A stretch of DNA of 64,000 bases, from NCBI GenBank assembly GCA_964605525.1, contig CAZSCV010000003.1:4227-68226 (forward strand), read 5' to 3'. Position 1 is the stretch's first letter. Each line of letters opens with the position of its first letter. The notes under the pieces were generated by a model, which saw only the letters and a program-made list of their open reading frames with translations, had not been told where the DNA came from and did not search any database. This stretch comes from an uncultured Bdellovibrionales bacterium. GTDB taxonomy: Bacteria > Patescibacteriota > Minisyncoccia > Moranbacterales > UBA9337. A program made the translations under genes and the position numbers. Positions 12,646-57,928 of the stretch are shown here, piece by piece.

Positions 12646-13536
12646 ATGGCGACACTTTATACTCAAGCCGATAGGAATGTTCGATTGACCTGGATATATA
12701 TCTCCGGGTTTTTGGTGTTTGTGATCGGGGTGGGTTATGTTTTCGCCGGGGCGATGGGGAATAGCACGATTTTGTATGGCGCGGTTATTTTTTCGGTAGT
12801 GATGAGTTTCGGATCATATTGGTGGAGCGACAAAATCGTTTTGGCGATGAGCGAGGCAAAGGAATTGACCCATGACAACAATCGGGAGATATACCATCTG
12901 GTGGAAAATCTCTGCATTACCGCCGGCCTTCCTGTTCCCAAGATTTATATCATCCAAGACAGCGCGCCGAACGCTTTCGCGACCGGGCGCGATCCCAAGC
13001 ACGGGGTTATTTGCCTGACGACCGGGATCGTTGAAAAATTGGAAAAGACCGAATTGGAAGGAGTAATCGCGCATGAACTTTCGCATATCGGGAACCGGGA
13101 TATCCTGCTTTCCACGGTGGTCGTGATTTTGGTAGGCTTCGTTACGCTTTTGGCGGATTGGTTCCGGCACTGGGCGTTTTTTGGCAGACGCGGAAGTGAC
13201 CGTGAAGGTGGTGGTCAATTGCAGATCATTTTGATGGTCGCGGCGATCGTGCTTTCGATTTTGGCTCCGATCGCGGCAGTGCTGATGCAATTGGCGATTT
13301 CTCGAAAAAGGGAATTTTTGGCGGATGCCTCCGCGGCCCTTCTGACGCGTTATCCGGACGGATTGGCACGCGCCTTGGAAAAGATTTCCGCCGACAAAGA
13401 GCCGCTGGAAGCCGCCAACCGGGCTACGGCGCATCTATATATCGCCAATCCTTTTAAAGGAAAGAAAGTTTCCAGCTTATTTCAGACCCATCCATCTATA
13501 GAAGATCGAGTAAAAGCGCTTCGCAATATGAAATAA
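12646..13536 (+). CDS. htpX: M48 family zinc protease HtpX
   Basis: HELSHIGNRD (HExxH), four TM segments and the C-terminal PSIEDRVKAL. Confidence 0.85.
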   Translation: MATLYTQADRNVRLTWIYISGFLVFVIGVGYVFAGAMGNSTILYGAVIFSVVMSFGSYWWSDKIVLAMSEAKELTHDNNREIYHLVENLCITAGLPVPKIYIIQDSAPNAFATGRDPKHGVICLTTGIVEKLEKTELEGVIAHELSHIGNRDILLSTVVVILVGFVTLLADWFRHWAFFGRRGSDREGGGQLQIILMVAAIVLSILAPIAAVLMQLAISRKREFLADASAALLTRYPDGLARALEKISADKEPLEAANRATAHLYIANPFKGKKVSSLFQTHPSIEDRVKALRNMK

Positions 13537-16257: not shown

Positions 16258-16740
16258 TTGTTTAATAAAAATATGCAATTTCAAATTCCCAAGGATAATG
16301 ACAAATATCAGTGGACGGCGCATTCGGTGATGAAGATGCGGCAGTATGGGCTGAGCGCCCAGCGGGTTTTGCGCGTGGTGCGCGCTCCGCACAGAAAGGA
16401 AGAAGGAATTGTGAAAAAAACCGTTGCCGTAATGCAACCGGTTTCTTTCAAAACCGACAAAGAGGGAAAACGCACTTGGGGAAGTGAGATTTGGGTGATG
16501 TATCAGCTCCGACGTGGCGTCAAAGCAATGACCAATAACCAATTTCTCCGCCCAAGGCGGACCAGTCTTGGGCTGGCAATTTCCAAACAAACTCAAAATT
16601 CCAAATTAAACATTTTCAATTCCGCGAGTCAGAAAATTCGCATTATAAGTGCTTGGAAATATCCCGGAGTGAGTCCGAAAAATAACCCTGTTCCTGAGGA
16701 TATTTTGCGAGAATTGGAGGAGTTGGATGACGTTGTGTAA
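16258..16740 (+). CDS. hypothetical protein with an in-frame palindromic insertion
   Basis: The insert is translated as FLRPRRTSLGLAISKQTQNSKLNIFN. Confidence 0.4.
   Translation: MFNKNMQFQIPKDNDKYQWTAHSVMKMRQYGLSAQRVLRVVRAPHRKEEGIVKKTVAVMQPVSFKTDKEGKRTWGSEIWVMYQLRRGVKAMTNNQFLRPRRTSLGLAISKQTQNSKLNIFNSASQKIRIISAWKYPGVSPKNNPVPEDILRELEELDDVV
16541..16620. repeat. in-frame palindromic element with CAAAATT-type flanks
   Basis: Core CCGCCCAAGGCGGACCAGTCTTGGGCTGG at about 16549-16577. Confidence 0.8.
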
Positions 16741-18942: not shown

Positions 18943-19227
18943 ATGTATTACGTGTATATTCTATATAGTGAAAAACTTAAAAAGAGATATATTGGATATT
19001 GCAGTGATTTAGGGAGGCGAATAAAAGATCACAATGAAAGAAGGGTAGTTTTTACATCAAGAGGTGTTCCGTGGAAAATAATTTATTATGAGGTTTTTGG
19101 AAGTAAGAGTGATGCACAAAGGGAAGAAAAATTTCTAAAAACAGGAAAAGGCAGGGATAGAATTAAATTTTTATTGGAGGATACGATGAAGAAAATAAAT
19201 GGAAGAATTCTAGGATCATCTGAATAA
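18943..19227 (+). CDS. GIY-YIG nuclease family protein (short, stand-alone)
   Basis: N-terminal YVYILYS...YIGYCSDLGRRIKDHN is the GIY-YIG motif. It is a paralog of the 56123-56413 ORF. Confidence 0.8.
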   Translation: MYYVYILYSEKLKKRYIGYCSDLGRRIKDHNERRVVFTSRGVPWKIIYYEVFGSKSDAQREEKFLKTGKGRDRIKFLLEDTMKKINGRILGSSE

Positions 19228-19312: not shown

Positions 19313-19400
19313 GGAGAGTTCGCATAGCGGTCTAGTGCGCACGCTTGGAAAGCGTGTGTGTCGAAAGGCACCGAGGGTTCAAATCCCTCACTCTCCGCCA
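19313..19400 (+). tRNA. tRNA-Ser(GGA), class II with a long variable arm, CCA encoded
   Basis: Acceptor GGAGAGT/ACTCTCC, anticodon stem CACGC/GCGTG with loop TTGGAAA, variable arm GTGTGTCGAAAGGCACC, T-arm GAGGG-TTCAAAT-CCCTC. Confidence 0.85.
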
Positions 19401-39888: not shown

Positions 39889-42800
39889 ATGATTAAAATT
39901 AAGGATAGATTTTTAATCCTCATATTCCTGATGGTTGCTTGTGGATTAATATTCGGAACGAAAGCGAGTGCTGAAGTTAAAATACTGTCGGACTCACGTC
40001 ATGCCTACACTACTATTGTCAGCACTATAAATATGTTGCTTGGCGTTGGGCATGTTGGTACGGATGTGATAGTTCACAGTACTAATATGGGTACCTTGGG
40101 ACCATTTTCCACATCTTCTTCTATCGCCCTTAATTCATCCACGAATTATTATAATGAATCTGGAAATTTGGTGCCTTCGCAAGCCCCTTATCAACTGTTT
40201 ACAACTTCAGCAACAAACTATATTGGAGACACTGCTTCAGAATATGACTTATCGATTTCTAATGATTTGGCTCATAATTATGCTTATAGTGCGGCACTAC
40301 CGCAAAGTACTTTTCCCCCGATATTTCATATGGCTCCAGGAAGGGAGGGTGGTACTACGGGTTATGGAGTTGAGTGGAGATTGGATTGCACTGTGTTTAG
40401 TTGCAGTTCATTGTCCGGAATAACAGCTGCCAATGCCGGATTAATGGCATCCCTTCGTTATCTTCATCCTACTTGGAATTGGTTTGATGTGAAAGCGGCA
40501 TTGCGTCAGACTGGTACAAACTGGAACACTGGTTATGATCGCAATGCTTTTGGATTCGGACAAATTGATTATCACGAAGCTGATATTTTGGAAGATGATC
40601 AAATATTTTTGCAACCTCCGGTAGCAAAAATAGATACTGTATATACACAGTCTATAAGATTTCAGCTTTATCCTTTCAAACAAACACGCAGAGTCAAAGA
40701 TGTATTATTTCAATTTTCTTCAGCTCCGTCTTTTTATGGAGATGAATTGACGCTTGCTGAGTTAGAGATGTTGGGTGGCACTAAAATTACGGAATATTCT
40801 GGCGATGTTTCCCGAATGATTCAACCTTTGGATATTGCAGTAGTGAATGCTTATTTTGTTTGGTTGACGGCTGATAATATTGATGATGATTTGGCGAATT
40901 TTTCTCGCATTGATACTTATGGAATTTTAGGACCTTTGAGTCAATCTTCGGTGCGGATTGGAGGTGCATTTTCGGAAATTTCGGATGCAAACAGTGTAAC
41001 TGATGTTTTGGTGGACGAACAAAATGGAAAAATATATACCGTTGAGCGAACAGTAGATGGTAATGGTAGTATCGTTCGTATGGATGAAGGAGTGGATGGT
41101 TCTGTGTTTGGTGCCAATCCTTCAGATTTTTCGCAAATCGTATTAAGAACTCCTTCTCAAGCGGTACTGGATAGCATTAATAATAAGGTATATATTACCG
41201 ATTCTGGTAATAGTCGAATTGTTAGTGTGAATAGTGGTACGGGTGGCACGGTTTTTGGTGAAAATTGGGAATCTTTCGGTTCGGAGGGTTCTGGAGATGG
41301 TCAAGTTAGTTATCCTTTCGGAATTTCCGTAGACGGTGCTAATAATCGGTTATATGTTGCGGATGTTAATAATAGCCGAATTGTCAGTATGGATAGCGGT
41401 ACGGGTGGCACGGTTTTTGGTGAAAACTGGGAATCTTTTGGCTCAGAGGGTTCTGGAATTAATCAATTCTTGTATGCTTCTGGAATTTTTGTTGATAGTG
41501 CTAATAGTAAGGTTTATGTGAGTGATTATGGTAATAATCGCATTGTCAGTGTGGATAGTGGAGAAGGTGCTACTACATTAGGAGGAAACTGGAATGAATT
41601 TGGTACATATGGTTCAGGGGTTGGACAATTTGATATTCCAGATGGAATATATGTAGATACTTTCAATAATAAGATATATGTTTCTGATTTTTTTAATACT
41701 CGCATTGTTAGTATGGATAGTGGCGGCGGTGGCACTACGATGGGGAGTAATTGGAAGGAATTTGGTGATTCCGGCGTAGGAGCGGGTCAATTTTTGGCAC
41801 CTAGCGGTATTTTTTCTGATAGGGTTAATAATAAATTGTATATTGTTGATTCTTCATCTAACCGTGTGGTAAAAATTGACAGTGGTGAAGGGGGCACTGT
41901 CTTGGGTGGTAATTGGCAAGTTTTTGGAAGTTCAGGATCGGGAAGTGAACAGTTCAACAGTCCATTTTATATTTTCGGTGATAATGTCAATAATAGAATT
42001 TATGTCGGTGATTCAGGTAATGATCGTATTGTTGGAATAGATTCCGGAGAGGGTGGTACTGTGCTGGGAGAAAATTACGCATCAATTCCAATTGCGCCAT
42101 TTGGAGTGTCTAATCAAGTCGCATTGGACAATGAAAATAATAAATTGTATGTGGCTGATAGCGGAAATGATAATATTATGAAGATAGATAGTGGAGGAGG
42201 AGAAACTACCTTGGGCAATGTATTGGAGACATTCGGTGAGCATGGTTCACCAGAAGAAGGATTGTTTTTAGAACCTGATGGTATCGTGGCAGATAGTGTT
42301 AGTAATCGGTTATATGTTGCTGATTCCGGACATGATCGTATTATCAGTATGGATAGCGGAGAAAGCGGGACCGTTCTTGGAGAGAATTTGCAATTATTTG
42401 GCGTGCTTGGATCGGGAGTAGGACAATTTAATAATCCTACTGGAATTGCTGTGGATAATTCGAACGATAAAATATATATAGTCGATAATAGTAACCATCG
42501 CATCGTCAGTATGGATAATGGAGAAAATGGAACTGTTTTAGGTGAAAATTGGCAATCTTTCGGATCACTTGGATCAGGATCTGATCAATTTCGATTTCCG
42601 GAAGACATATTCTTTAGCGATGACAAACTATATGTAGCCGATACTGATAATAATCGCATCGTTATCATTGATAGTGGCAGTGATTTCACGAGTTTCGGTG
42701 CTAATTTCAATTCTTTTGGTGTATATGGTGATGGAAGTAGTGAAGGACAATTTAATAATCCGACTAGCGTTTCTGTGGATGCGCAAAAAAAAATTATCTA

Positions 42801-44997
42801 TGTTGTTGATTCAGGTAATGGACGTATTGTGCAGATTATTCCTCCAATTATGATTATTGGTCAGAGCCAGAATGATTATACATTGCAAAACCAGGTTATC
42901 GATTGTTCGGCGGATGAGGAAGTGGGAGTTTATGTTCAGTCGGGATTAGAAGGGACGAATTTTAATAATGTGACTTTTCTTAATTGCGGTATTAGCGCTA
43001 TATTACTCAGAAGTGAACTTTCTCAATCTAATAATTTATTGTTTGTCAATAATGCAAGTGCGGTTCAAGATGAGGTTGGTGGGTATACTTGCACCAATTG
43101 TTTTGATGACTCGGAGGATGGCGAATCTAATGTTCTTGCTTCAGGACAGCCTGATTGGAATTCTCCAGCCATAGACACTGGTATTACTGTTGTAGGAAGG
43201 GATGTTGATTATGCCGGAAATTCTATTTATGGCACTCCCGATATCGGAGCCTATGAATACCAACCGCCATATGAAATGGGAACGGACGAAGTGGATATTT
43301 CCGCCAATGTTCGGATTTATGGGGATGGGAAATTTCGAAACACTGAAACGGCCAGTGGAATTACGGCTAGCCTTTCTATTATTCCGCAGGGAAGCGGGAC
43401 AGAGAAATGGCTGGATATTACCAAGGCTGATGACGAAGAAGCGATTATTTGGGAAGCTAACCGCAAAAAATGGAAAGAATCTTCCACTACTCTCGGAGAA
43501 AATAGTACACTTCATACAATTGAAGATTTAACTGCGGGAAAATCATACACTCTTGCTATTGATGGTTCGTTAGTAAGCGAAGATCCGATGACTGGAAATA
43601 TTACCAGCTCTGATTGTATTGATAGTGCCTGCGTTGCTGATGATACTGGAGAAATCACCTTTAATTATATAGGAGGTTATTCCGATCACACATTTGAATT
43701 GACAGATAATGTTGCTCCAGTGATTACTGTTACTTCTCCCGTATCAGGAAGCGCTGTTTCGGCTGATGATACTATAACTTTCACCGATTCCGAAACCACT
43801 GATCCGGAGTGTTCCATAGACAATTCCAATTGGGTCAATTGCGTTAGTACTGTAACCAGTTTTTCCGACCTCACCAACTGGGATGACATCGCAGAAAGTG
43901 ATACCTTCACTTTGTATATGCGAGATACGGATGCTTCCAGTAATACCGGAACAACAAATGTTTCCAATCTCACCAAAGCCGACACCCAAGCCCCGGTGCG
44001 CTCGGAAGGTTTGCCTAGCAGTGAATTATCTTCCGGCACAACTTCCACAACATTAAGCCTCACTACCAGCGAAACAGCCACTTGTAAATATTCCAACACC
44101 CCCGGTACCGCTTATGCCGATATGACCGAATTATTTACAACGGAAGATGGCATTATTCATACCAAAGATATTTCCAATCTTTCCGATGGTAGTTCATACA
44201 GCTATTATGTGAGATGTCAGGATTTATCCGAAAATGCTAACGACACCGATTATCTTATTAGTTTTTCAGTAGCCAGTCCGCAAGATGTCGAAGAAGATAC
44301 TGATGAAGAAAAGGATCTTGATATTCATGGTGTTAAGGCGGAATCTACGGAAAATTCTATTACAATAACCTGGAAAACCGACCATAACACCAAATCAAGT
44401 ATTCGATATGGAGTAGATAGGAATCTCAAGGAAAAGAAAAAGGACAATAGTAAAGAGAAAAAACATAAAATCGTTATTGATGGATTGCAGTCAAATGTAA
44501 AATATTATTTCCGCATAAAAGCCACGGATAGCAACGACAATGAAGATTCAAGTAAAATTCATTCAATAATGACTAAAGCTACTCAAATTTCAATTACAAA
44601 TCAAAGTCAGGATGAAAATACAAGCCAGTCTTCAGCAGAGAACACGAATGAGTCAGTATATTCCGATAATTCAACTCCCAATATCTGCTCATACACAATC
44701 CAATCCGGCGACACTCTTTGGTCAATTGCCAAACAAGTCTATGGCGATGCTACTCAATACCAAAAAATCATTGAGAAAAACCAAGACAAATATCCCGATA
44801 TTGAAACAAAATTATCCATTGGGCAGGAATTATCTTTCGGTTGCGAAAACGATGATTCGAAAAATGACATAGAAAAGAATCTGGAATTAAGTGTGCCTAA
44901 TAACAATATTGAACCGCAACCCCAAATTAAAACAGAACCTAAGAATAATTCTTCTGAAAAAGTATTCAAGTGGTGGAATCCGTTTAGCTGGTTTTGA
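39889..44997 (+). CDS. giant secreted surface protein: N-terminal subtilase-like remnant, about 12 NHL repeats, Ig/FN3-like region and a C-terminal LysM domain
   Basis: Signal peptide. The repeated unit is N.(K/R)(I/L)YV(A/S)DSGN.RIV..DSG.GGT..G; a FN3-like block (ITITWKTD...YYFRIKATD); LysM (YTIQSGDTLWSIAKQVYGD...). Confidence 0.8.
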   Translation: MIKIKDRFLILIFLMVACGLIFGTKASAEVKILSDSRHAYTTIVSTINMLLGVGHVGTDVIVHSTNMGTLGPFSTSSSIALNSSTNYYNESGNLVPSQAPYQLFTTSATNYIGDTASEYDLSISNDLAHNYAYSAALPQSTFPPIFHMAPGREGGTTGYGVEWRLDCTVFSCSSLSGITAANAGLMASLRYLHPTWNWFDVKAALRQTGTNWNTGYDRNAFGFGQIDYHEADILEDDQIFLQPPVAKIDTVYTQSIRFQLYPFKQTRRVKDVLFQFSSAPSFYGDELTLAELEMLGGTKITEYSGDVSRMIQPLDIAVVNAYFVWLTADNIDDDLANFSRIDTYGILGPLSQSSVRIGGAFSEISDANSVTDVLVDEQNGKIYTVERTVDGNGSIVRMDEGVDGSVFGANPSDFSQIVLRTPSQAVLDSINNKVYITDSGNSRIVSVNSGTGGTVFGENWESFGSEGSGDGQVSYPFGISVDGANNRLYVADVNNSRIVSMDSGTGGTVFGENWESFGSEGSGINQFLYASGIFVDSANSKVYVSDYGNNRIVSVDSGEGATTLGGNWNEFGTYGSGVGQFDIPDGIYVDTFNNKIYVSDFFNTRIVSMDSGGGGTTMGSNWKEFGDSGVGAGQFLAPSGIFSDRVNNKLYIVDSSSNRVVKIDSGEGGTVLGGNWQVFGSSGSGSEQFNSPFYIFGDNVNNRIYVGDSGNDRIVGIDSGEGGTVLGENYASIPIAPFGVSNQVALDNENNKLYVADSGNDNIMKIDSGGGETTLGNVLETFGEHGSPEEGLFLEPDGIVADSVSNRLYVADSGHDRIISMDSGESGTVLGENLQLFGVLGSGVGQFNNPTGIAVDNSNDKIYIVDNSNHRIVSMDNGENGTVLGENWQSFGSLGSGSDQFRFPEDIFFSDDKLYVADTDNNRIVIIDSGSDFTSFGANFNSFGVYGDGSSEGQFNNPTSVSVDAQKKIIYVVDSGNGRIVQIIPPIMIIGQSQNDYTLQNQVIDCSADEEVGVYVQSGLEGTNFNNVTFLNCGISAILLRSELSQSNNLLFVNNASAVQDEVGGYTCTNCFDDSEDGESNVLASGQPDWNSPAIDTGITVVGRDVDYAGNSIYGTPDIGAYEYQPPYEMGTDEVDISANVRIYGDGKFRNTETASGITASLSIIPQGSGTEKWLDITKADDEEAIIWEANRKKWKESSTTLGENSTLHTIEDLTAGKSYTLAIDGSLVSEDPMTGNITSSDCIDSACVADDTGEITFNYIGGYSDHTFELTDNVAPVITVTSPVSGSAVSADDTITFTDSETTDPECSIDNSNWVNCVSTVTSFSDLTNWDDIAESDTFTLYMRDTDASSNTGTTNVSNLTKADTQAPVRSEGLPSSELSSGTTSTTLSLTTSETATCKYSNTPGTAYADMTELFTTEDGIIHTKDISNLSDGSSYSYYVRCQDLSENANDTDYLISFSVASPQDVEEDTDEEKDLDIHGVKAESTENSITITWKTDHNTKSSIRYGVDRNLKEKKKDNSKEKKHKIVIDGLQSNVKYYFRIKATDSNDNEDSSKIHSIMTKATQISITNQSQDENTSQSSAENTNESVYSDNSTPNICSYTIQSGDTLWSIAKQVYGDATQYQKIIEKNQDKYPDIETKLSIGQELSFGCENDDSKNDIEKNLELSVPNNNIEPQPQIKTEPKNNSSEKVFKWWNPFSWF

Positions 44998-49673: not shown

Positions 49674-49941
49674 CCCTGTATTTTTTAAAATGCTCCGAAG
49701 CCTGGAAGAAGTCAGAACCTATTTCAAAAAACAAGAAGTGAACAATTGCCACAGTGACGGATTGGGTTAATTAACCTCGAGCAGCCTAATTGCCACTTGT
49801 TTGGCCGTGTGTCGAATGATTGAAGAGTGATGGCGGAATTGCCCAGTATTGAAGAATTTGTAGAACCTTACGCAAAATTTAAGAGCCCTGCCAGTCGTTC
49901 GACCAGCAGGGCTCATAATACGTTCATGTACTTTTTTCAGG

Positions 49942-50661
49942 TTACTGTTCCATGGTGGCACACAGGCGCGCCCAGTTTTTCTTCACCTCGAGTTCGAGAC
50001 GACCTGCTTCGATGTCAGCGACAACTGCGGGGTCATCCTGCTCGTATTCCAGATACGCTTCACGAATGGAGGCGATGACGGGCAGACCCTTGTAAGTCGT
50101 GTCGTAAATCGGAGATCGGTTGAATGCTCCGACGAGGAGCACGATGTTTACCCCGGTCACAGCGATTTCCGCCAGGGTATTATCGGTATTCTGGAAGTTG
50201 TTGTAAACGTCTTCCGCGATCGCGACACGTTCGCCCTGTTCAAAATCGAACTGCGAGAGGTCCCAACTGTATTCTTGTTTCTTGCCAACCTCGGTCGGTT
50301 TCGGTTTCTTGTCCGCATATGCGAACCGCTTACCAGCAACGAGCGCAAGCATCTGACCGAATGTCCGACCACCTTGCGGGATTCCGCAGATAGTATCGAA
50401 CGAGTCGAGTAAGTCCTGATCGCAGAGTTTCTGATATGCCGCCTCGGCAAACGCCTCAACAGCTTTCGGATGGACTTCAATCCTCCGAAAGTTGAAGTAG
50501 ATGTCTCCGACGAGGTTTCGTCCCTTGGCGTCTTTTCCCGCATAGACGACCAAAGGTCCCTTACGTTGAGAGCCGACTTTCGGACAAACATATACAGCGC
50601 CGCAGCGCTTTCCAAGCTCCAGAAGGTCTTCTCCTGGATACGGAACAATAAAATTCGACAT
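49942..50661 (-). CDS. orotate-phosphoribosyltransferase-like protein with a degenerate PRPP loop, in a GC-rich island
   Basis: Type I PRTase architecture (GIPQGGRTFGQMLAL ... GERVAIAEDVYNNFQNT in place of VxxDVxTTGGS). Local GC is about 50% against about 33% in the flanks. Confidence 0.5.
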   Translation of the reverse strand: MSNFIVPYPGEDLLELGKRCGAVYVCPKVGSQRKGPLVVYAGKDAKGRNLVGDIYFNFRRIEVHPKAVEAFAEAAYQKLCDQDLLDSFDTICGIPQGGRTFGQMLALVAGKRFAYADKKPKPTEVGKKQEYSWDLSQFDFEQGERVAIAEDVYNNFQNTDNTLAEIAVTGVNIVLLVGAFNRSPIYDTTYKGLPVIASIREAYLEYEQDDPAVVADIEAGRLELEVKKNWARLCATMEQ

Positions 50662-50870
50662 TTTCTTCCTCCTTTTCGGTTATACTTCACTCAAAAAAAC
50701 TTCACCCCTTGCCAATAATCCTCCTTTCGAGAAATTTGATAACTAACTTATATATAAATTTTTATTCTTTTTTCAAGGTTCAAAAACTGCCTAAAAAAGC
50801 AGTTCCTTATAATAACAGGTATTCATATTTATGCAATATAAGGGGGCTTTAAATTCTTGAATTTATTTTT

Positions 50871-50927
50871 AAAGCAAAATTTTCGAACCGATATAATAGC
50901 GCAAAAGAGCCTTAGTAAGGCTCTTTT
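50871..50927. repeat. diverged copy a of the same repeat, beside the PRTase-like GC island
   Basis: TTCGAACCGATATAATAGCGCAAAAGAGCCTTAGTAAGGCTCTTTTGGAATG. Confidence 0.6.
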
Positions 50928-50984
50928 GGAATGATGCCATGAAGTCCGGAGGCAGGCAGGGTCACTTTGGGAAAATAAATAGTC

Positions 50985-51371
50985 CTAATCTAGTTGGTTT
51001 ATCTGTATTAGATTTCCACAGGTGTCATTAAACACCGCAATCGTTGATCCCGTCACTTTTGTTGGCTCCATGGTAAAGGATACGCCCAATTCCTTCAATT
51101 TTTCATATTCTTTTTGGATATCATCGACAAAAAATGCCGTAGCTGGTATGTTTTGTTCAAAAATAGCTTTCTGATATATTTTGGCGGCAGGATTTTCGTT
51201 GGGTTCGAGAAGAAGCTCGGTCCCATCCGGCTGTTCGGGAGAAACAACGGTTAGCCACCTATATTCTCCAGCAGACACGTCATTTTTTTTCACAAAACCT
51301 AAAACTTCCGTATAGAACTCCAGCGCTTTTGTCTGGTTGTCTACAAACACGCTGGTCACTTTGATTTTCAT
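50985..51371 (-). CDS. VOC (glyoxalase/bleomycin-resistance) family protein
   Basis: KALEFYTEVLGF at the N-terminus and a paired beta-alpha-beta-beta-beta module. Confidence 0.75.
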   Translation of the reverse strand: MKIKVTSVFVDNQTKALEFYTEVLGFVKKNDVSAGEYRWLTVVSPEQPDGTELLLEPNENPAAKIYQKAIFEQNIPATAFFVDDIQKEYEKLKELGVSFTMEPTKVTGSTIAVFNDTCGNLIQINQLD

Positions 51372-51401
51372 AAGATTAATGCGTTATTTGAATTATTTTA
51401 T

Positions 51402-51674
51402 TTATTCCCCATCATAGGCTTTTTGCAATTCCACCATGTTTATTTTCTTCATTTTAAGCACGGCTCCCATGACTCTTTCAGTTTTGTCTTGATCTCGAAG
51501 CATTTTTTCGATAGTATCCGGAACAATTTGCCAAGAAAGACCGAAGCGATCTTCTAAATTTATTACAAAAACCCACACGAATAATTGCATATTTTTAGGT
51601 ATCCTTAATCCTGATAAGGAAACATTAATGGAAAAACCGAAAAAGACCACGGGTATTGCCAATGATATTTGCAA
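51402..51674 (-). pseudogene. 3' remnant of a PhnB-like VOC family gene
   Basis: Only the C-terminal roughly 50 aa (DRFGLSWQIVPD...AVLKMKKINMVELQKAYDG) match the PhnB family C-terminus. The N-terminal part of the ORF is unrelated. Confidence 0.4.
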
Positions 51675-51876
51675 GGATTTAAAAAGTGGATTGGCTCAAA
51701 AGCCGATATAATGCTTTGTCTTTATTATGTGGAGGTTGGCATGAAATACACCTATACTTACGGCGATATCAATGAACCTTTTTGTGCCCGCATGAATAAA
51801 GGGGGTCAGGTACCTTTTTTGTTTTAGTGCATAGCAAGGATGATCCCCAACTAATCTTATCAACGAACTCCGCAAA

Positions 51877-52689
51877 TCATTTACTGCTAAAATTTGTCAG
51901 AATAACGACTTCTTTCTCATGGATATGTCCATCTTTTTCGTGTCTTTTGACAAAAAACTTCCTTGCACTTTCTTTGATTTCATCCGACATATCATGCAGA
52001 TGCCGCATGCCTATCCACTCCAAGACCAGATTGCCGTTTTTATTAAGGATATTGCCTCTTGTCAAAACACCGGAAAATATCGTATCAAATTTTTTGACTT
52101 TGATCCTATGTGCGCTAAGCCCGCTCAGTAACGAATCAATTTCATTCCTTGATGACCCATATTGATCGTCGGTTATTTTTTTAAGCCCGCCCAAAAAAGA
52201 ATTTGCGTCATTCACCACGAAAACTGCGACTCCATCCCTTTTAAGCATTTTTCTTATCTTATCCAGATATGAGTTATTTCTAAAGGTATAGATACTATGG
52301 ATAAGAAAAATGATGTCATATTTGCTCTGGGTGGAAAATTTTTCGAAAGTACTCTTTTTTGTGACAATGGGATACTTTTTCTTGGCCGATTCCCCAATGC
52401 AGTTTTTTATAAATTCTTCTGAAGGCTCCACCAGATCAGCTTCGGCAATTATTTCTTTTTGTTTGAATAAATCAAGAAGATGCCTAAGTCGCTTGCCATC
52501 ACCGCCACCGACATCCAATATCTTTAGTTCTTTTTTATTTCTAATTTCAGGATAGACAATATCAAAAACACTAAGAATCAATGAATCTTTTTTGCCATAA
52601 AGTATGTTTTTGAATTCGTTGTATTTACGGGCTCCTTCCGAGGAATTCAAATAATCCAAGTACTGTTTCTTTACATCTTTCATAAACAA
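51877..52689 (-). CDS. class I SAM-dependent methyltransferase
   Basis: Motif I LDVGGGDGKRL plus motif II/III spacing. Confidence 0.7.
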   Translation of the reverse strand: MFMKDVKKQYLDYLNSSEGARKYNEFKNILYGKKDSLILSVFDIVYPEIRNKKELKILDVGGGDGKRLRHLLDLFKQKEIIAEADLVEPSEEFIKNCIGESAKKKYPIVTKKSTFEKFSTQSKYDIIFLIHSIYTFRNNSYLDKIRKMLKRDGVAVFVVNDANSFLGGLKKITDDQYGSSRNEIDSLLSGLSAHRIKVKKFDTIFSGVLTRGNILNKNGNLVLEWIGMRHLHDMSDEIKESARKFFVKRHEKDGHIHEKEVVILTNFSSK

Positions 52690-52717
52690 AGTCTAATACT
52701 TTATTGTGCCCTTGTCT

Positions 52718-52786
52718 AATGTTTGAGCCTGTTTTATAGCAAAAAAGAGCCTTCCTTTGGCTCTTTTGAGATTTGCTCCGCGAGCT
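52718..52786. repeat. copy b of a roughly 65-bp hairpin-containing direct repeat, 5' of the pyrF-like gene
   Basis: AATGTTTGAGCCTGTTTTATAGCAAAAAAGAGCCTTCCTTTGGCTCTTTTGAGATTTGCTCCGC. Confidence 0.75.
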
Positions 52787-52945
52787 CAAATCTATTCGAA
52801 CCTATTCCAATAGTTAAGCACGCCTGGATTAGAAAATATTCGAACTTTACAGATTAAGTCTCATATACTTGCTTTTTATGTCTAAACCTGTACAATCTAT
52901 GCAGGTAGAAATGGGAGTTAGGCATGGGGCTTAACTCTTCAGTTA

Positions 52946-53698
52946 TTGCACAATCTCAATCAGGGAGGCATTATGGACTCAGGGAGAACGATTTGGGCAG
53001 CATTGGACACAGACAAGAGAAAGGCTCTACAGATCGCAAAAACCATTGCTTCACATCCGGCAATTTTCGGCTTCAAAGTCAACCGTTTGATCGATCAGGA
53101 GGTTTTCCGTAAAGACGGCGAACCGGCCTTGTTCGAAGAGCTGGCACAGCATGGTCTTCCGATCTGGGTTGATCTGAAACTGTTCGACATCCCCAGGACT
53201 GTCGTCGAAAGGCTCATGCCGTATATCCAATCAGGATACGTTCAGTTCATCACTGTTATGGCCAAGGGCGAGGTCGACATGATGGCTGACGGTGTTGCTG
53301 CGATGGGCGACAAAGGAAACATCATCGCCGTCACCGAACTGACATCATTTTCCGAAGAACAAGTTCACCTCGGGAGTGGTCATCCCTCAAAGGCATCCGT
53401 AATCAATCTGGCTCGCATCTCTGTACTGGCTGGAGTACGTTATATGGTCTGTTCCTCTCAGGAACTGGGGGTGTTGAAAAGTCGGAGGGAATTGGTTTCC
53501 CTTCGCAAGTTCGTTCCGGGGATAACTCCCGACTGGAAAAAGGGAGAAAACCAGCCGGGTCAGAAACGAGTCGGTAGTCCTGCCTTTGCTCTCAGCGGAG
53601 GTGCAGACAAAATCGTCATCGGCGGAGCGATCGTCAACGATGCTGATCCCCTGGGAGCAGTCGAAAAGACGGCTCAGGAAATTGAAGCCATCGACTGA
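52946..53698 (+). CDS. orotidine-5'-phosphate decarboxylase family protein (PyrF-like), GC-rich
   Basis: ALDTD, FKVN, VDLKLFDIPRTV (DxKxxDIP) and C-terminal GADKIVIGGAIVNDADP. The true start may be M at 52973. Confidence 0.65.
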   Translation: MHNLNQGGIMDSGRTIWAALDTDKRKALQIAKTIASHPAIFGFKVNRLIDQEVFRKDGEPALFEELAQHGLPIWVDLKLFDIPRTVVERLMPYIQSGYVQFITVMAKGEVDMMADGVAAMGDKGNIIAVTELTSFSEEQVHLGSGHPSKASVINLARISVLAGVRYMVCSSQELGVLKSRRELVSLRKFVPGITPDWKKGENQPGQKRVGSPAFALSGGADKIVIGGAIVNDADPLGAVEKTAQEIEAID

Positions 53699-53725
53699 AA
53701 TCACAATCACTATTTGTCATCAAGA

Positions 53726-53767
53726 AGCCGAAAGTTCGCAGTGCGAACCGTAGGCTTTTTTATTTTT
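53726..53767 (+). terminator. intrinsic terminator after the pyrF-like gene
   Basis: AAGCC..GTTCGCAGTGCGAAC..GGCTT followed by T6. Confidence 0.65.
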
Positions 53768-53792
53768 TGTAAAATAAAAGAGTTAATGCAAT

Positions 53793-53861
53793 CAATGTTC
53801 GAACCTGTTTTATAGCACAAAAAGAGCCTTCATTTGGCTCTTTTGAGATTTGCTCTGCTGA
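53793..53861. repeat. copy c of the roughly 65-bp direct repeat, 3' of the pyrF-like gene
   Basis: AATGTTCGAACCTGTTTTATAGCACAAAAAGAGCCTTCATTTGGCTCTTTTGAGATTTGCTCTGC. Confidence 0.75.
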
Positions 53862-54003
53862 ATTGTTGTATTCAGAACTGAAATCGCTCAAATTAGCCGG
53901 GGATTTGAACTTGTTTTTGAAAACTTTTGCACTCCAATAAAAAAAACGACCCGCTCTATATAAGCAACGGGTCGCACATCTTGAATCTACTTGCTGAACA
54001 CTG

Positions 54004-54528
54004 TCAGCTCAGGAAGTCCACGCCAGCCTTCCTCTCTTCATCGTTTTCGTAAGCGTTGTGGGCCAGTCCGACGATAACATCGGCTATCATACCGGAAATC
54101 ATCTTGTCGAACCAGGGTTGAACGCCGGAACATGTCACGACGATACCCCGCCTTTTGACGCCGCCCCAGTAAGGTGTGTCATCTGAGAACAGCAGATGCG
54201 GAATAGGCATTGTGCGGTCATCGTTCCTGTCGGTCCAAAGCTGAAGCGCCTTGCACCGAGCAATGTTATCATAGGGATGTTCCCAACCCTCTTCTTTGCC
54301 GAGACTGTGCTCATAAAGAGACACAGCCTGAAGCGGATAGTTGGGCCAGTCAGGATAGTCGGCCTCGCGGTCGTCCTTCATGCCGGGCACCAGTATGACA
54401 ATGTGGCACTGCACCCGCTTGAGTAAGGGACGAAGTAGCGACGAATCTCCCATGACTGCGCCAAGAACTGCCTCGACTGCTTTACGTGCATCTTCCTCGG
54501 TGAGATACTTTGGTGTAATCAACTTCAT
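54004..54528 (-). CDS. hypothetical protein (GC-rich island, no recognisable family)
   Basis: 174-aa ORF at about 52% GC with strong codon periodicity. Confidence 0.45.
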   Translation of the reverse strand: MKLITPKYLTEEDARKAVEAVLGAVMGDSSLLRPLLKRVQCHIVILVPGMKDDREADYPDWPNYPLQAVSLYEHSLGKEEGWEHPYDNIARCKALQLWTDRNDDRTMPIPHLLFSDDTPYWGGVKRRGIVVTCSGVQPWFDKMISGMIADVIVGLAHNAYENDEERKAGVDFLS

Positions 54529-54546
54529 GTGTTCCTCCTTTGTCGG

Positions 54547-55908
54547 TTATTTCATTGCTTCGAGGATGCTTTCCTCGGTTTCTTTCTTTTCGGCTTGATG
54601 AACTGCATCCTCAGCATCTCTCTTTTCCCTTTCTGCAATCAGTTCGCGAACTTTTTCTACGAGTTCCTGGTCATCCGCGAACTCCTCAAGCATCTGGCCT
54701 GCCGCACGCCTCGTCTCCGCATCGTATACATGGAATCTTCCATATTCTTCCACATTTTTGATGACGGCGTATCTGGCGATTTTGTGCCGAAGCTCTTTAA
54801 AGGAGTCTGCGGACAAAAGCTCGAAGAAGTTGATAACATTGAAGGCATCGATCAGATGTTTGTTTGACTGAAGATTATCCACGAGGAACTGCACCTGCTC
54901 AATGAAGAACTTCTTGGAGTAGTGTAGGCCGTAGAACTGCATCTGAATGAAACTGGAATAGCAGCGCAGAGCGTCTTCATGCTCTTCTCTGGGCTTTGCT
55001 TTTCCTTCGATCTCGGCACGCACTATATCTCGCATCTTCCCGTCGGCCAACCTTTTCCATTTCTCATTGATGTCGTCGGAGTACATGAGGTTCCGGAAAG
55101 GATTGTATCCTGAAGCAAAATCCATATTCCAGAACGTTGAGATGTCATTAAGGGAATACAGCGGAAATATTTTTTCTGCCTGCTCAGCAGGAAGCTTTGC
55201 AAGCAGTTTCAGGATGCAGTGGTTGTAGAAGTGCAGCGCATCATGATATTTGTCGGGTATCGACATGTACACCATAATACCACCGCCACCTTCGGCAACA
55301 TTCCTCGGCCGATCGCAATGCATCGGACTCAGCGCAGTTACAAACTGTGTGATAAGCTCCGATACGTAACTCAGTAGATCGGGAGTCAGCTTGTCGAGGA
55401 TGTCTGACCTGTGATAAAACTTGCCAATATCTCCTTTCCAGTAAAGCGGGTTCACTGCAGCCGAAGGCACCATTAGCAGAAACAGTGCCCGCTTCTTGAA
55501 ACTATCGTTCACCTGCTGGGAAAGAAGATCGAGCAAGTCCCTTACTTCTCTGGACTTGAAGTCGACCCATTTTTTCCATTTCATATCTTCTTCCGTGGGA
55601 AACCACTTGCTTCTAAGTCTCTTGAGTAAAAACATCAGTCTTTCCATGATTTCTTCCTCCTGTGCTGTTTGCTCGTCAGACGGCTTCCAATGCCGTCCTT
55701 TTTTGGCTCTCCATCCCTGTCTCTTTTCCCGAAGCTCGTAAAGAAAGACGACTTCTCCAGGTTCCGGGTGCCCATGCTCCTGCCACACATTACGCTCCAA
55801 AGAGAACGTAACCGAGCCAGTGAACACCTGTGTGGTCGCAATGGCATACGGCCCGTGCGGTCCCACTGGAACAACTTTTTCAACTATGGCTTTTATGCCT
55901 TTTTCCAC
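54547..55908 (-). CDS. hypothetical 453-aa protein (GC-rich island, no recognisable family)
   Basis: Long ORF at about 50% GC. An N-terminal small beta-rich segment (VVPVGPHGPYAIATTQVFTGSVTF) is followed by a helical domain. Confidence 0.5.
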   Translation of the reverse strand: MEKGIKAIVEKVVPVGPHGPYAIATTQVFTGSVTFSLERNVWQEHGHPEPGEVVFLYELREKRQGWRAKKGRHWKPSDEQTAQEEEIMERLMFLLKRLRSKWFPTEEDMKWKKWVDFKSREVRDLLDLLSQQVNDSFKKRALFLLMVPSAAVNPLYWKGDIGKFYHRSDILDKLTPDLLSYVSELITQFVTALSPMHCDRPRNVAEGGGGIMVYMSIPDKYHDALHFYNHCILKLLAKLPAEQAEKIFPLYSLNDISTFWNMDFASGYNPFRNLMYSDDINEKWKRLADGKMRDIVRAEIEGKAKPREEHEDALRCYSSFIQMQFYGLHYSKKFFIEQVQFLVDNLQSNKHLIDAFNVINFFELLSADSFKELRHKIARYAVIKNVEEYGRFHVYDAETRRAAGQMLEEFADDQELVEKVRELIAEREKRDAEDAVHQAEKKETEESILEAMK

Positions 55909-56059
55909 GCTTTTCTCACCTCCTTTCGCATTGAGTTTTTAAAGGTCAACTGACGATAAATAATAATATGAACTAGTGCAAAAGTCAAGGGGCTGTAGAG
56001 TTACCCGAATTCAAACCCCAAAGCCCCTTTTTCCGGTGAGTGTGAATATTTGTGTTAAA

Positions 56060-56122: not shown

Positions 56123-56413
56123 TCAAACTGCTTTTTCCTTTGCTGGTTTTGAAGTATTTTCTTTAAAATAATGTCGCAGTTGTTTTTTGAGATATGTTCG
56201 ACCGGAACCACCCTTGAGAAATTTTTCTCGTCCGACCGCATCAGCTTTATTGAGATATGCTTCGTAATAAATTAATTTCCAATTTTTCTTCAAAGAAGTT
56301 GTTCTGCATCCATATCCTCTTTGATGATCATTAACTCTGGTTTTCAAATCATTAGTATATCCAATATACCAAGAATTATCATTTTGACACTCTAATAAAT
56401 AGGCGTAATACAT
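56123..56413 (-). CDS. GIY-YIG nuclease family protein (short, stand-alone)
   Basis: MYYAYLLECQ...WYIGYTNDLKTRVNDHQ. It is a paralog of 18943-19227. Confidence 0.8.
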   Translation of the reverse strand: MYYAYLLECQNDNSWYIGYTNDLKTRVNDHQRGYGCRTTSLKKNWKLIYYEAYLNKADAVGREKFLKGGSGRTYLKKQLRHYFKENTSKPAKEKAV

Positions 56414-56566
56414 GATTTTAAATTAGTGAATTATGTTTTAATTATACAGTAAAAAAAGACCTGTCGCGCCACGAAAAATGGCTTCGCCATCTCGTGGCCA
56501 CGAAAAACTTACAAAAAAGGTGGAGTTATATAGTTTTGTAAAATATGGCGGCGCCACGAGATGAAA

Positions 56567-56598
56567 AAAAGACTATCCCGTCAGGGTAGTCTTTTTTG
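56567..56598 (-). terminator. hairpin terminator immediately 3' of the split tRNA
   Basis: AAAGACTA-TCCCGTCAGGG-TAGTCTTTTTT. Confidence 0.6.
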
Positions 56599-56648
56599 AG
56601 TTTTTCGTGGCTCCGACGGTAGGATTCGAACCTACGACCAAGTGATTA

Positions 56649-57211
56649 CACTCTTGGCAAGTGGACTATATCATTCTCTCATAATTTTATAACAATGAGA
56701 GATTGGGCGCTTTTTGGAAGATTATTGTTGGGACTCACTTCCTAGTCTCTACACCTTTCCCGAGAATTAAAACCCGTCGGGACTTGGCTCGGTATTAGAG
56801 TGGCTCTCCTTCACCGAATTCACCCAATTTTTCGATCAGAGTCACCTCTGAAAGCTGCCTAGCATGGACTTCTATGTGACAATTACTGCATAATAAAATG
56901 CATTTGTCTAACTCAGATTTTACTCGATCCCATGACCGAGTATATCCTTTCTCTGAGACACCGAAATCTTTTGCTGCAGGTTCCAAATGATGAAAAGCAA
57001 GAGCGTTTTCACATTTGTTGTATCCGCATATTTGACAAGCACCTCCTTTATATTGGAGAGATTTCTTCTTGATATCCTTTCTTCTTTTATCAACAAAAAA
57101 TTTGCTTTTGCATTGCGGACTACAGAACCTGCGCCGTGGTTTTACATTTTTTGTACAAATTTTCCAAGCACATTTCATATGCTATATTATACAAAAATAT
57201 AAGCCAAATTG
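56649..57211 (-). mobile_element. candidate self-splicing (group I-like) intron or invasive insertion in tRNA-Asn, carrying an HNH endonuclease ORF
   Basis: The 5' exon ends in U and the insertion ends in G. TTGGC near the 5' end is complementary to GCCAA near the 3' end. There is an internal 8-bp hairpin (TCTCTCAT...ATGAGAGA) and a same-strand ORF. Confidence 0.45.
56795..57178 (-). CDS. HNH endonuclease
   Basis: CxxC...CQICGYNKC...AFHHLEP...CSNCH gives the HNH zinc-finger nuclease motifs; 127 aa. Confidence 0.8.
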   Translation of the reverse strand: MKCAWKICTKNVKPRRRFCSPQCKSKFFVDKRRKDIKKKSLQYKGGACQICGYNKCENALAFHHLEPAAKDFGVSEKGYTRSWDRVKSELDKCILLCSNCHIEVHARQLSEVTLIEKLGEFGEGEPL

Positions 57212-57526: not shown

Positions 57527-57928
57527 ATGAAAAACAGAGTAGTGCATTTTGAAATTCAGGCCGACAACGTGGAGCGCGCCAAGAATTTCTATGAAAAAGC
57601 TTTCGGATGGAAAATTGAAAAATATGAAAGCAAAGAGAAGATGGAAATGCCGATGGATTATTGGATGGTTATGACGGGCGAAAAAGGAACACCTGGAATT
57701 GACGGAGGAATGTACCAGCGTCCGAAAGATGACAAGATTTATACCTATGATTGCACGATTGAAGTTGAAGACATCGACAAGGCGGTGGAGGCGGTCAAAT
57801 CCGGCGGAGGAACGATTACTCGTGAGAAAAGCGAGCTCGCCGGAGTGGGCTGGTTTGCCAGCGCCAAAGATCCGGAAGGCAACCGTTTTGCCTTGATGCA
57901 ACCGGTTGGATGGAAGATGGAAGGATAG
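57527..57928 (+). CDS. VOC (glyoxalase) family protein
   Basis: VVHFEIQADNVERAKNFYEKAFGW with a paired module. Confidence 0.75.
   Translation: MKNRVVHFEIQADNVERAKNFYEKAFGWKIEKYESKEKMEMPMDYWMVMTGEKGTPGIDGGMYQRPKDDKIYTYDCTIEVEDIDKAVEAVKSGGGTITREKSELAGVGWFASAKDPEGNRFALMQPVGWKMEG

Follow-up and report, generated by a model that had tools for sequence, protein, structure and literature searches.

The last two steps of UMP synthesis are carried out by orotate phosphoribosyltransferase (OPRTase; PyrE, EC 2.4.2.10), which converts orotate and phosphoribosyl pyrophosphate (PRPP) to orotidine 5'-monophosphate (OMP) and pyrophosphate (PPi), and by OMP decarboxylase (OMPDC; PyrF), which converts OMP to UMP. 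The described systems closest to the locus studied here are the Thermus-type clade of PyrE (TIGR01367; PDB 4paw), the bifunctional OMPDC-OPRTases (PRK05500; Leishmania UMP synthase, 3qw4) and the bacterial type 1 PyrF enzymes (PF00215, PRK00230; 3tr2 and 1eix). Parcubacteria have been described as generally lacking de novo nucleotide biosynthesis (PMC4508563), and a study of nucleotide skew reported no recent gene acquisition by them (Nelson and Stegen 2015, PMC4508563). The stretch analyzed here, referred to as the window, is 64,000 nucleotides long (contig CAZSCV010000003.1, positions 4,227 to 68,226, assembly GCA_964605525.1) and contains two GC-rich islands. The first carries a gene for a 239-aa type I phosphoribosyltransferase (PRT)-like protein, and the second carries pyrF and the genes of a 174-aa and a 453-aa protein. 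The reading that we favor, with moderate confidence, is that a pyrE-like/pyrF pair lies here beside an unrelated 174/453 operon, that the two share only their atypical composition, and that each gene was acquired separately from GC-richer Parcubacteria (~50% GC).

Homologs of the 239-aa protein, 78-87% identical to it, directly adjoin an OMP decarboxylase gene in three different genomes. A Moranbacteria genome (L019-21) has the order pyrF, PRT, pyrD and dihydroorotase, beside purB, purC/E and purH; a Paceibacterota genome (L022) has pyrD, dihydroorotase, PRT and pyrF; and the third genome (L029-32) has PRT then pyrF only. PRT and pyrF are neighboring and co-directional in these relatives. All eight of the long family representatives tested were found to be fusions of an N-terminal OMP decarboxylase and a C-terminal PRT, the arrangement seen in the bifunctional OMPDC-OPRTases, and one of them (L034) is followed by pyrD. 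The fusions carry two different OMPDC subtypes and, therefore, fusion probably arose more than once. Within 8 kb on either side of the pyrD-pyrC-pyrF clusters that hold a PRT homolog, no other pyrE candidate was found. The PRT family is coupled in these ways to other steps of UMP synthesis, and its adjacency to pyrF, pyrD and pyrC together with its fusion to OMP decarboxylase suggests that the 239-aa protein is most likely the PyrE of these organisms. The initial annotation of this stretch had singled out the pairing of pyrE-like and pyrF-like genes, and the adjacency in three genomes and the fusions support the pairing as meaningful. The window differs from the bifunctional enzymes in that the two predicted activities are encoded by separate genes on opposite strands, in divergent orientation and with 2.3 kb between them. 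With PRK05500, the fused relatives score only 18-30 bits, compared to a cut-off of 656.

The dihydroorotases beside the PRT homologs, of 354 and 377 aa (L019 9921-10985 and L022 6683-7816, respectively), are class II enzymes with HxHLRDG and GTDSAPH motifs and an E-value of 1e-41 to PDB 6cty. They had been considered as a short form of the 453-aa family, which was rejected since they are class II dihydroorotases. Neither has a significant Pfam match and, thus, Pfam-based annotation overlooks pyrC in these genomes of the candidate phyla radiation (CPR).

The 239-aa protein falls below the thresholds of the curated models. Pfam Pribosyltran (PF00156) gave 16.4 bits against a cut-off of 26.3 (E = 0.006), the best NCBIfam match, pyrE_Therm (TIGR01367), gave 24.7 bits against 150, and TIGR00336 gave 17.4 bits against 106.8. 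When the protein alone was searched against the PDB, human OPRTase was the best match, at E = 0.13. Its homologs fall into 311 clusters, the best 120 of which are all 76-90% identical to the protein and come from Paceibacterota, Moranbacteria, Zambryskibacteria and Minisyncoccia. Pairwise identity within this hyperconserved Parcubacteria group has a median of 0.80. The group is one branch of a wider PRT family, for which an exhaustive profile search found 362 representatives at 50% identity, including 302 at E<=1e-10. Members of the wider family are ~240-260 aa in length, longer than PyrE, with N- and C-terminal extensions. No curated model exists for it; the best NCBIfam match of the members tested was always pyrE_Therm, at 22-67 bits compared to the cut-off of 150. 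Literature searches covering Parcubacteria and Patescibacteria yielded no paper on this family.

With the family profile, the top match in the PDB was the OPRTase 4paw (E = 4.9e-11). It also matched the OPRT domain of Leishmania UMP synthase (3qw4, E = 2.4e-7) and human OPRTase (E = 3.4e-7), and 2wns is among the solved OPRTases that it matched. Beyond this similarity to a canonical OPRTase (E = 5e-11), the PDB profile search found no member of the family among solved structures. The canonical PRPP motif consists of four hydrophobic residues, two acidic residues, two further residues and then T-[TS]-G-x-[TS]. In the 239-aa protein, the hydrophobic run and the E-D pair are kept ('VAIAEDV'), and the T-[TS]-G-x-[TS] loop is absent. 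Its phosphate loop reads Y-N-N-F-Q-N-T, in which N154, N155, F156, N158 and T159 are invariant in the subfamily. 'EDV[FY]NNFQNT' is invariant throughout the Parcubacteria subfamily, and 'EDVxNNFSTT' is typical of the wider family, so that N-N-F-S-T-T takes the place of the PyrE loop. The loop and 'EDVVTSGSS' of human OPRTase are equal in length, and the family-conserved 'LNRS' aligns to 'LANRG' of 4paw with the Arg of 'NRS' kept. The segment 'AEDVYNNFQNT', noted earlier as a degenerate PRPP loop, is present as described but is not degenerate: a large family seated in pyr operons conserves it as its signature. The 239-aa protein is most likely a PyrE equivalent, OPRTase-like with a remodeled 5-phosphate loop, and its activity is a prediction from sequence and context.

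A different role in pyrimidine metabolism for a protein of PRT fold, such as that of a PyrR/PurR-like regulator or of an enzyme that uses another base or a non-PRPP donor, would also explain why the canonical loop is absent family-wide and why the curated pyrE thresholds are missed. The family profile also matches APRT, XPRT and PurR, and the high conservation of the subfamily is atypical for a plain metabolic enzyme. We consider this explanation quite unlikely, since the matches to APRT, XPRT and PurR have weaker E-values, OPRTases being the best matches at every level, and since alignment with OPRTases places the acidic pair, the loop length and the 'NRS' Arg in register. Family members fused independently to two OMPDC subtypes, and members in pyrD-pyrC-pyrF clusters without another pyrE candidate, also argue for an OPRTase, and no DNA- or RNA-binding domain was found in the 239-aa protein.

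The pyrF gene probably starts at the ATG at 52973, which has GGAGG ahead of it. Its product matches Pfam OMPdecase (PF00215) at 93.1 bits, compared to a cut-off of 27, over profile positions 5-220 of 221. It has the TIM-barrel length of the bacterial type 1 enzymes, to which it is nearest (solved OMPDC 3tr2, E = 4e-17). Residues D12, K35, D67, K69 and D72 (DxKxxD) are invariant in the PyrF alignment, Q197 and R199 of the 'QKR' loop are conserved, and 'VDLKLFDIPRT' aligns to 'LDLKFYDIPQT' of 3tr2. These features suggest a catalytically equipped OMP decarboxylase of the PF00215 family, with one atypical substitution that is considered below. A 3-residue insertion ahead of the Q loop also sets it apart from the type 1 enzymes. 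In the proposed pathway, the 239-aa protein would serve as the OPRTase of the lineage, converting orotate to OMP, and PyrF (241 or 250 aa) would convert OMP to UMP. Neither pyrC nor pyrD was found within the 64-kb window and, thus, the organism may run the last two steps only, as orotate salvage.

The composition of the two islands was recalculated. Windowed GC rises from ~0.33-0.40 to 0.50-0.535 at 49.8-50.6 kb, is 0.45-0.545 at 52.8-55.9 kb, and is back at 0.35-0.39 between both patches and past 56 kb; the remaining 1-kb bins of the whole window have GC contents of 0.30-0.43. GC content at third codon positions (GC3) was compared with that of the 48 open reading frames (ORFs) of at least 150 aa in the window (median 0.37, standard deviation 0.08). 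Four of the five window ORFs that exceed the median by more than two standard deviations are the four island genes (Table 1). By our arithmetic, the chance that at least four of the top five GC3 ORFs fall in one block of five consecutive ORFs is ~5e-3. First and second codon positions are raised too (GC1 0.56-0.62, median 0.47; GC2 0.32-0.41, median 0.33). The shift is largest at third positions, and amino-acid composition as the sole cause of the GC-richness was rejected for this reason. The genes between the islands, encoding a glyoxalase, a small ORF and an S-adenosylmethionine (SAM)-dependent methyltransferase, are host-like in composition. The jump in GC at both stretches, the four ORFs and the low-GC genes between them were all borne out as initially annotated, and the islands show the atypical composition of a classical genomic island. 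An assembly chimera was rejected as the source of the pattern, because the same gene order is found in two independent ENA assemblies. The 453-, 239- and 174-aa proteins also match proteins of Parcubacteria group bacterium Athens0714_25, an NCBI metagenome-assembled genome (MAG), at 100% identity. The surroundings are ordinary housekeeping genes, including those of Ddl, RpoD, DnaG, pyruvate kinase, a DEAD helicase and ABC transporters.

Three GC3-rich ORFs lie outside the islands: an M48 (HtpX-like) peptidase at 12646-13536 (+; GC3 0.58), a 155-aa protein without a Pfam match at 16273-16740 (+; GC3 0.51) and a protein of the glyoxalase/bleomycin-resistance fold at 57527-57928 (+; GC3 0.53). 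Compositional outliers in this genome are, therefore, not limited to the two islands.

The same gene families are GC-rich outliers elsewhere. The pur and pyr genes of L019 have a GC3 of 0.46-0.65 compared to 0.24-0.30 in their flanks, and the pyr genes of L022 have 0.38-0.44 compared to 0.25-0.33 in most flanks, one flanking gene (S1) having 0.38. Homologs of the 453-aa gene are richer in GC than their flanks in most loci (for example, 0.51 compared to 0.37 in L008), and the 174-aa homolog of L037 has a GC3 of 0.68 in surroundings of 0.25-0.42. These families occur as single-gene GC-rich outliers in other AT-rich Parcubacteria, and each gene would most likely have been acquired separately. In L027, a Parcubacterium of ~49% GC, the 174-aa gene and pyrF are no outliers, which makes such lineages plausible donors.

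Synonymous sites of the PRT gene were compared between the window and homologs of other lineages (genes from four lineages, six pairs). Identity at 4-fold sites was 0.50-0.55, compared to 0.28-0.32 expected from codon bias in a within-gene permutation control, and codon bias was, therefore, rejected as the source of the synonymous identity. A control housekeeping pair with 63% amino-acid identity was at chance (0.26 compared to 0.24). By the Nei-Gojobori method, the PRT gene had a synonymous divergence (dS) of ~1.0-1.7 in five of the six pairs and 3.1 in the sixth, with a nonsynonymous divergence (dN) of 0.10-0.15. For these genome pairs, synonymous sites of Ddl and of the neighboring genes pyrF, pyrD and pyrC were at or close to saturation (dS 2.2-5.0 where it could be computed), with a dN of 0.5-0.9 and amino-acid identities of 28-51%. 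The unsaturated sites of PRT beside saturated neighbors suggest that the common ancestor of the PRT genes is much more recent than that of the host genomes. These data point to, but do not prove, an origin of the composition in transfers of individual genes between Parcubacteria, with GC-richer relatives as the donors. Horizontal acquisition of an orotate-to-UMP module, one of the origins proposed earlier, is the best-fitting reading and is largely supported for two of the four genes.

Another possible explanation is vertical inheritance, with all four genes native, and their GC-richness and the unsaturated sites of PRT caused by strong selection (high expression with codon selection, or constraint at the nucleotide level) or by a compositional lag of slowly evolving genes while the genomes drift toward AT. 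In nearly all loci examined, and in hosts of differing GC, the GC3 of these families exceeds that of the host, as a gene-intrinsic cause would predict. The PRT gene has a low dN/dS (0.05-0.11). The islands are not flanked by mobility genes, and there is weak synteny in that Ddl is near the PRT gene in both the window and L029. We nevertheless find vertical inheritance doubtful. Codon selection alone is insufficient when GC1 and GC2 are raised beside GC3, and genes for which high expression is expected are not GC3-rich, with 0.35 for RpoD and 0.34 for pyruvate kinase in the window, and 0.30 for ATP synthase alpha/beta in L026. The PRT proteins of the window and L029 are 87% identical while the Ddl proteins of the same loci are only 36-41% identical, and the 4-fold identity of PRT exceeds what the codon-bias control predicts. 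Also, the OMPDC-PRT fusion of the wider family in a low-GC genome (L034) is no outlier.

The initial annotation preferred a noncanonical nucleotide-modifying or defense-type module made up of all four genes, and proposed that the neighborhoods of 453-aa homologs be examined. The four genes are close together with a common atypical composition, small GIY-YIG and HNH-like genes lie next door, and PRT-fold effectors are present in some defense systems. Ten local proteins were searched by tblastn against 16 loci with 453-aa homologs (one of them 85% identical), and in none of the 16 was a homolog of PRT, of pyrF or of the 174-aa gene present within 10 kb. Loci added later were scanned alike, and no four-gene co-occurrence was seen in 16 + 6 + 4 homolog contexts; a single four-gene module was rejected on this basis. 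Six distinct contexts were seen for homologs of the 174-aa protein. In the window and in L027/L028, the gene adjoins pyrF; in the remaining four, it stands between uvrA and uvrB (a housekeeping context), by itself, behind an HD-domain gene or behind a helicase. PRT homologs, in turn, are seated in pyr and pur biosynthetic operons. Unlike known anti-phage systems, none of the four proteins is matched by PADLOC, and none has a PHROG match; profiles of the PRT and 174-aa proteins found no relatives in viral contigs (IMG/VR). The sole PADLOC match nearby is that of the low-GC methyltransferase to mad2, through a generic methyltransferase domain. We regard the module, of either type, as highly improbable. 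The four genes are not one module, and the 174/453 operon has no evident functional tie to the pyr genes.

Several observations weigh against separate acquisition of a functional pyrE-like/pyrF pair. The 239-aa protein fails the Pfam and NCBIfam cut-offs and is without the canonical PRPP 5-phosphate loop, and catalysis of orotate + PRPP to OMP + PPi by its family is a prediction. PyrF also falls under the NCBIfam equivalog cut-offs (PRK00230, 123.6 compared to 193; TIGR01740, 84.1 compared to 92.3). Its phosphate-gripper Arg is absent, the sequence being 'IGGAI' and not the 'IGRPI' or 'VGRPI' of four comparison PyrFs. The L034 fusion also lacks this Arg ('MGAQI') and, therefore, the change is also seen where the context is evidently functional. 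Identity between the window pyrF and the pyrF genes that adjoin PRT or 174-aa homologs in other loci is only 28-35%. Under horizontal transfer, in-situ replacement of PRT beside a non-orthologous pyrF is needed, which is not parsimonious. A domain scan of the window found no integrase, transposase or other mobility gene at the island borders. Last, in the ~49% GC Parcubacterium (L027 7284-8525 and L028 787-2028), pyrF is followed at a distance of 10 nt by a 174-aa homolog. This homolog and the window protein are 87% identical, compared to only ~35% for the two adjoining pyrF genes, and this recurrent adjacency to a non-orthologous pyrF hints at a link that our explanation does not cover.

The 174-aa and 453-aa genes had been described as convergent. 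They are co-directional with an 18-nt gap and thus form an operon with the 174-aa gene second; the convergent pair is pyrF and the 174-aa gene. The two proteins had also been assigned to no recognizable family, but their folds can be recognized and both are common conserved hypotheticals of Parcubacteria. Neither has a match in PADLOC, PHROGs, Pfam or NCBIfam (for the 174-aa protein, none at E<=0.1). Profile searches of PDB sequences found no GlcG/DUF336 member for the 174-aa protein and nothing useful for the 453-aa protein. The 174-aa protein, with 310 homolog clusters, has the characteristic alpha/beta fold of the GlcG/DUF336 ('haem-degrading') family and is a putative small-ligand-binding protein of that fold. 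It is ~30-40 residues longer than ORFY (2a2l), EfgA (6bws), NahX (9jth), HbpS (3fpv) and the PduO C-terminal domain (5cx7), with 14-19% identity.

The 453-aa protein has 72 homolog clusters; those with taxonomic names are from the Parcubacteria group, and most are metagenome sequences. In its structural model (predicted local distance difference test, pLDDT, 85.8), approximately residues 1-75 form a five-stranded oligonucleotide-binding (OB) barrel superposable on cold-shock (CSD) and S1 domains. A fold search of BFVD returned cold-shock domains only. In contrast to the CSD/S1 proteins Unr (4qqb), CRHSP-24 (3aqq), Lin28 (3trz) and CspB (9xw3), it has no Pfam CSD/S1 match and its OB domain is fused to a ~360-residue alpha-solenoid without a specific structural relative, for which there were only loose HEAT/ARM-like matches. 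The model suggests a probable nucleic-acid-binding OB(CSD/S1)+solenoid protein. Approximately one third of the family is without the N-terminal OB domain. This ~90-residue domain is mobile, as it recurs, at 57-64% identity, in otherwise unrelated proteins of 330-505 aa in which a Pfam scan found no domains. Apart from self matches, the nearest homolog of the 453-aa protein (L003, CAZAFB010000004.1; 85% identity, dS ~0.8) is in a MAG labelled 'uncultured Bdellovibrionales'; either a binning/taxonomy error or cross-phylum transfer would account for this label.

The positions of the features are given in Table 1. The PRT-like gene has its own strong terminator and, thus, looks monocistronic. The low-GC block is proposed to be an insertion because PRT and pyrF are adjacent in relatives. 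A direct repeat of 51-65 nt, with a perfect 9-bp hairpin, is present in three copies in the window compared to 0.01 expected; the copies bracket the low-GC block and pyrF, copies 2 and 3 framing pyrF in direct orientation. The repeat is absent from the other loci fetched, except for contigs of the same species. In the proposed history, PRT and pyrF, adjacent or fused in relatives, would have been split into divergent orientation by the 1.8-kb block flanked by repeats. The arrangement is consistent with rearrangement or insertion via recombination between repeats. Alternatively, the repeats may be reused regulatory modules (terminators or promoters), as they hold a terminator-like hairpin.

Table 1. 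Positions of the island genes and associated features in the window
Feature	Position	Strand	Remarks
Terminator-like hairpin, 14 bp + T-run	49883..49914	-	Directly 3' of the stop codon of the PRT-like gene
239-aa type I PRT-like protein, proposed divergent OPRTase (PyrE equivalent)	49942..50661	-	GC 0.525, GC3 0.58
Direct repeat copy 1, with hairpin AAAAGAGCC-N7-GGCTCTTTT	50878..50928	+	Between PRT-like gene and low-GC block
Low-GC block between pyrE-like gene and pyrF, 1.8 kb, proposed insertion	50985..52689	-	Pfam; GC3 0.38-0.42
Glyoxalase/VOC protein	50985-51371	-	Pfam
Small ORF	51402-51590/51674	-	
SAM-dependent methyltransferase	51877-52683/52689	-	Pfam
Direct repeat copy 2, ~65 nt including hairpin	52717..52780	+	Upstream of pyrF
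PyrF, predicted OMP decarboxylase, 241 aa from ATG	52973..53698	+	GC3 0.55; 250 aa from TTG at 52946
Direct repeat copy 3	53794..53857	+	Downstream of pyrF
174-aa protein, GlcG/DUF336 (HbpS/EfgA/PduO-C) fold, conserved Parcubacteria family	54004..54528	-	GC3 0.61
453-aa protein, N-terminal cold-shock/S1-like OB fold + C-terminal alpha-solenoid, Parcubacteria-specific family	54547..55908	-	GC3 0.55
Sigma-70-like promoter match TTGACT-17-TATTAT, upstream of 453-aa gene	55960..55988	-	Consensus match only

Other features of the window were also observed. Two stand-alone GIY-YIG genes, ~45% identical to each other, encode proteins of 96 aa at 56123-56413 (-) and 94 aa at ~18943-19227 (+). The latter sits just upstream of a tRNA-Ser gene (19313-19400), which is the sole tRNA and the only Rfam match in the window and is 30 kb from the islands. 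A 127-aa HNH/zinc-ribbon-like gene (56795-57178) is beside the 96-aa GIY-YIG gene, and these GIY-YIG and HNH-like genes may be selfish nuclease genes. Between them, at 56488-56616, are nested inverted repeats with arms of 25-30 nt and a 14-bp AT-rich terminator-like hairpin. A 1702-aa protein at 39889-44997 (+), with weak NHL, fn3, SGL and LysM matches, probably represents one of the giant surface proteins that are typical of CPR genomes.

A more far-reaching idea, which we consider unlikely, is that the NNFSTT/NNFQNT family is a distinct class of OPRTase that binds its donor differently or uses a non-PRPP donor, and that its Parcubacteria subfamily and the 174-aa and 453-aa families belong to a pool of single genes in active exchange among Parcubacteria that are distantly related and naturally competent. 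If this were true, the exchanged pool would leave recurrent one-gene GC-rich islands, and nucleotide-auxotrophic symbionts would gain orotate-to-UMP capacity.

The locus does not represent a new kind of system; it refines a pathway annotation and raises a tractable evolutionary question. The recurrent one-gene compositional outliers, together with the unsaturated synonymous sites of PRT, are a testable signal of gene flow within the CPR. Pfam-A and NCBIfam models miss the variant-loop, OPRTase-like enzyme at their cut-offs and, thus, the pyrimidine capacity of CPR genomes could be under-called. Our reading suggests that the UMP pathway is present in some Parcubacteria, at least for its last two steps.

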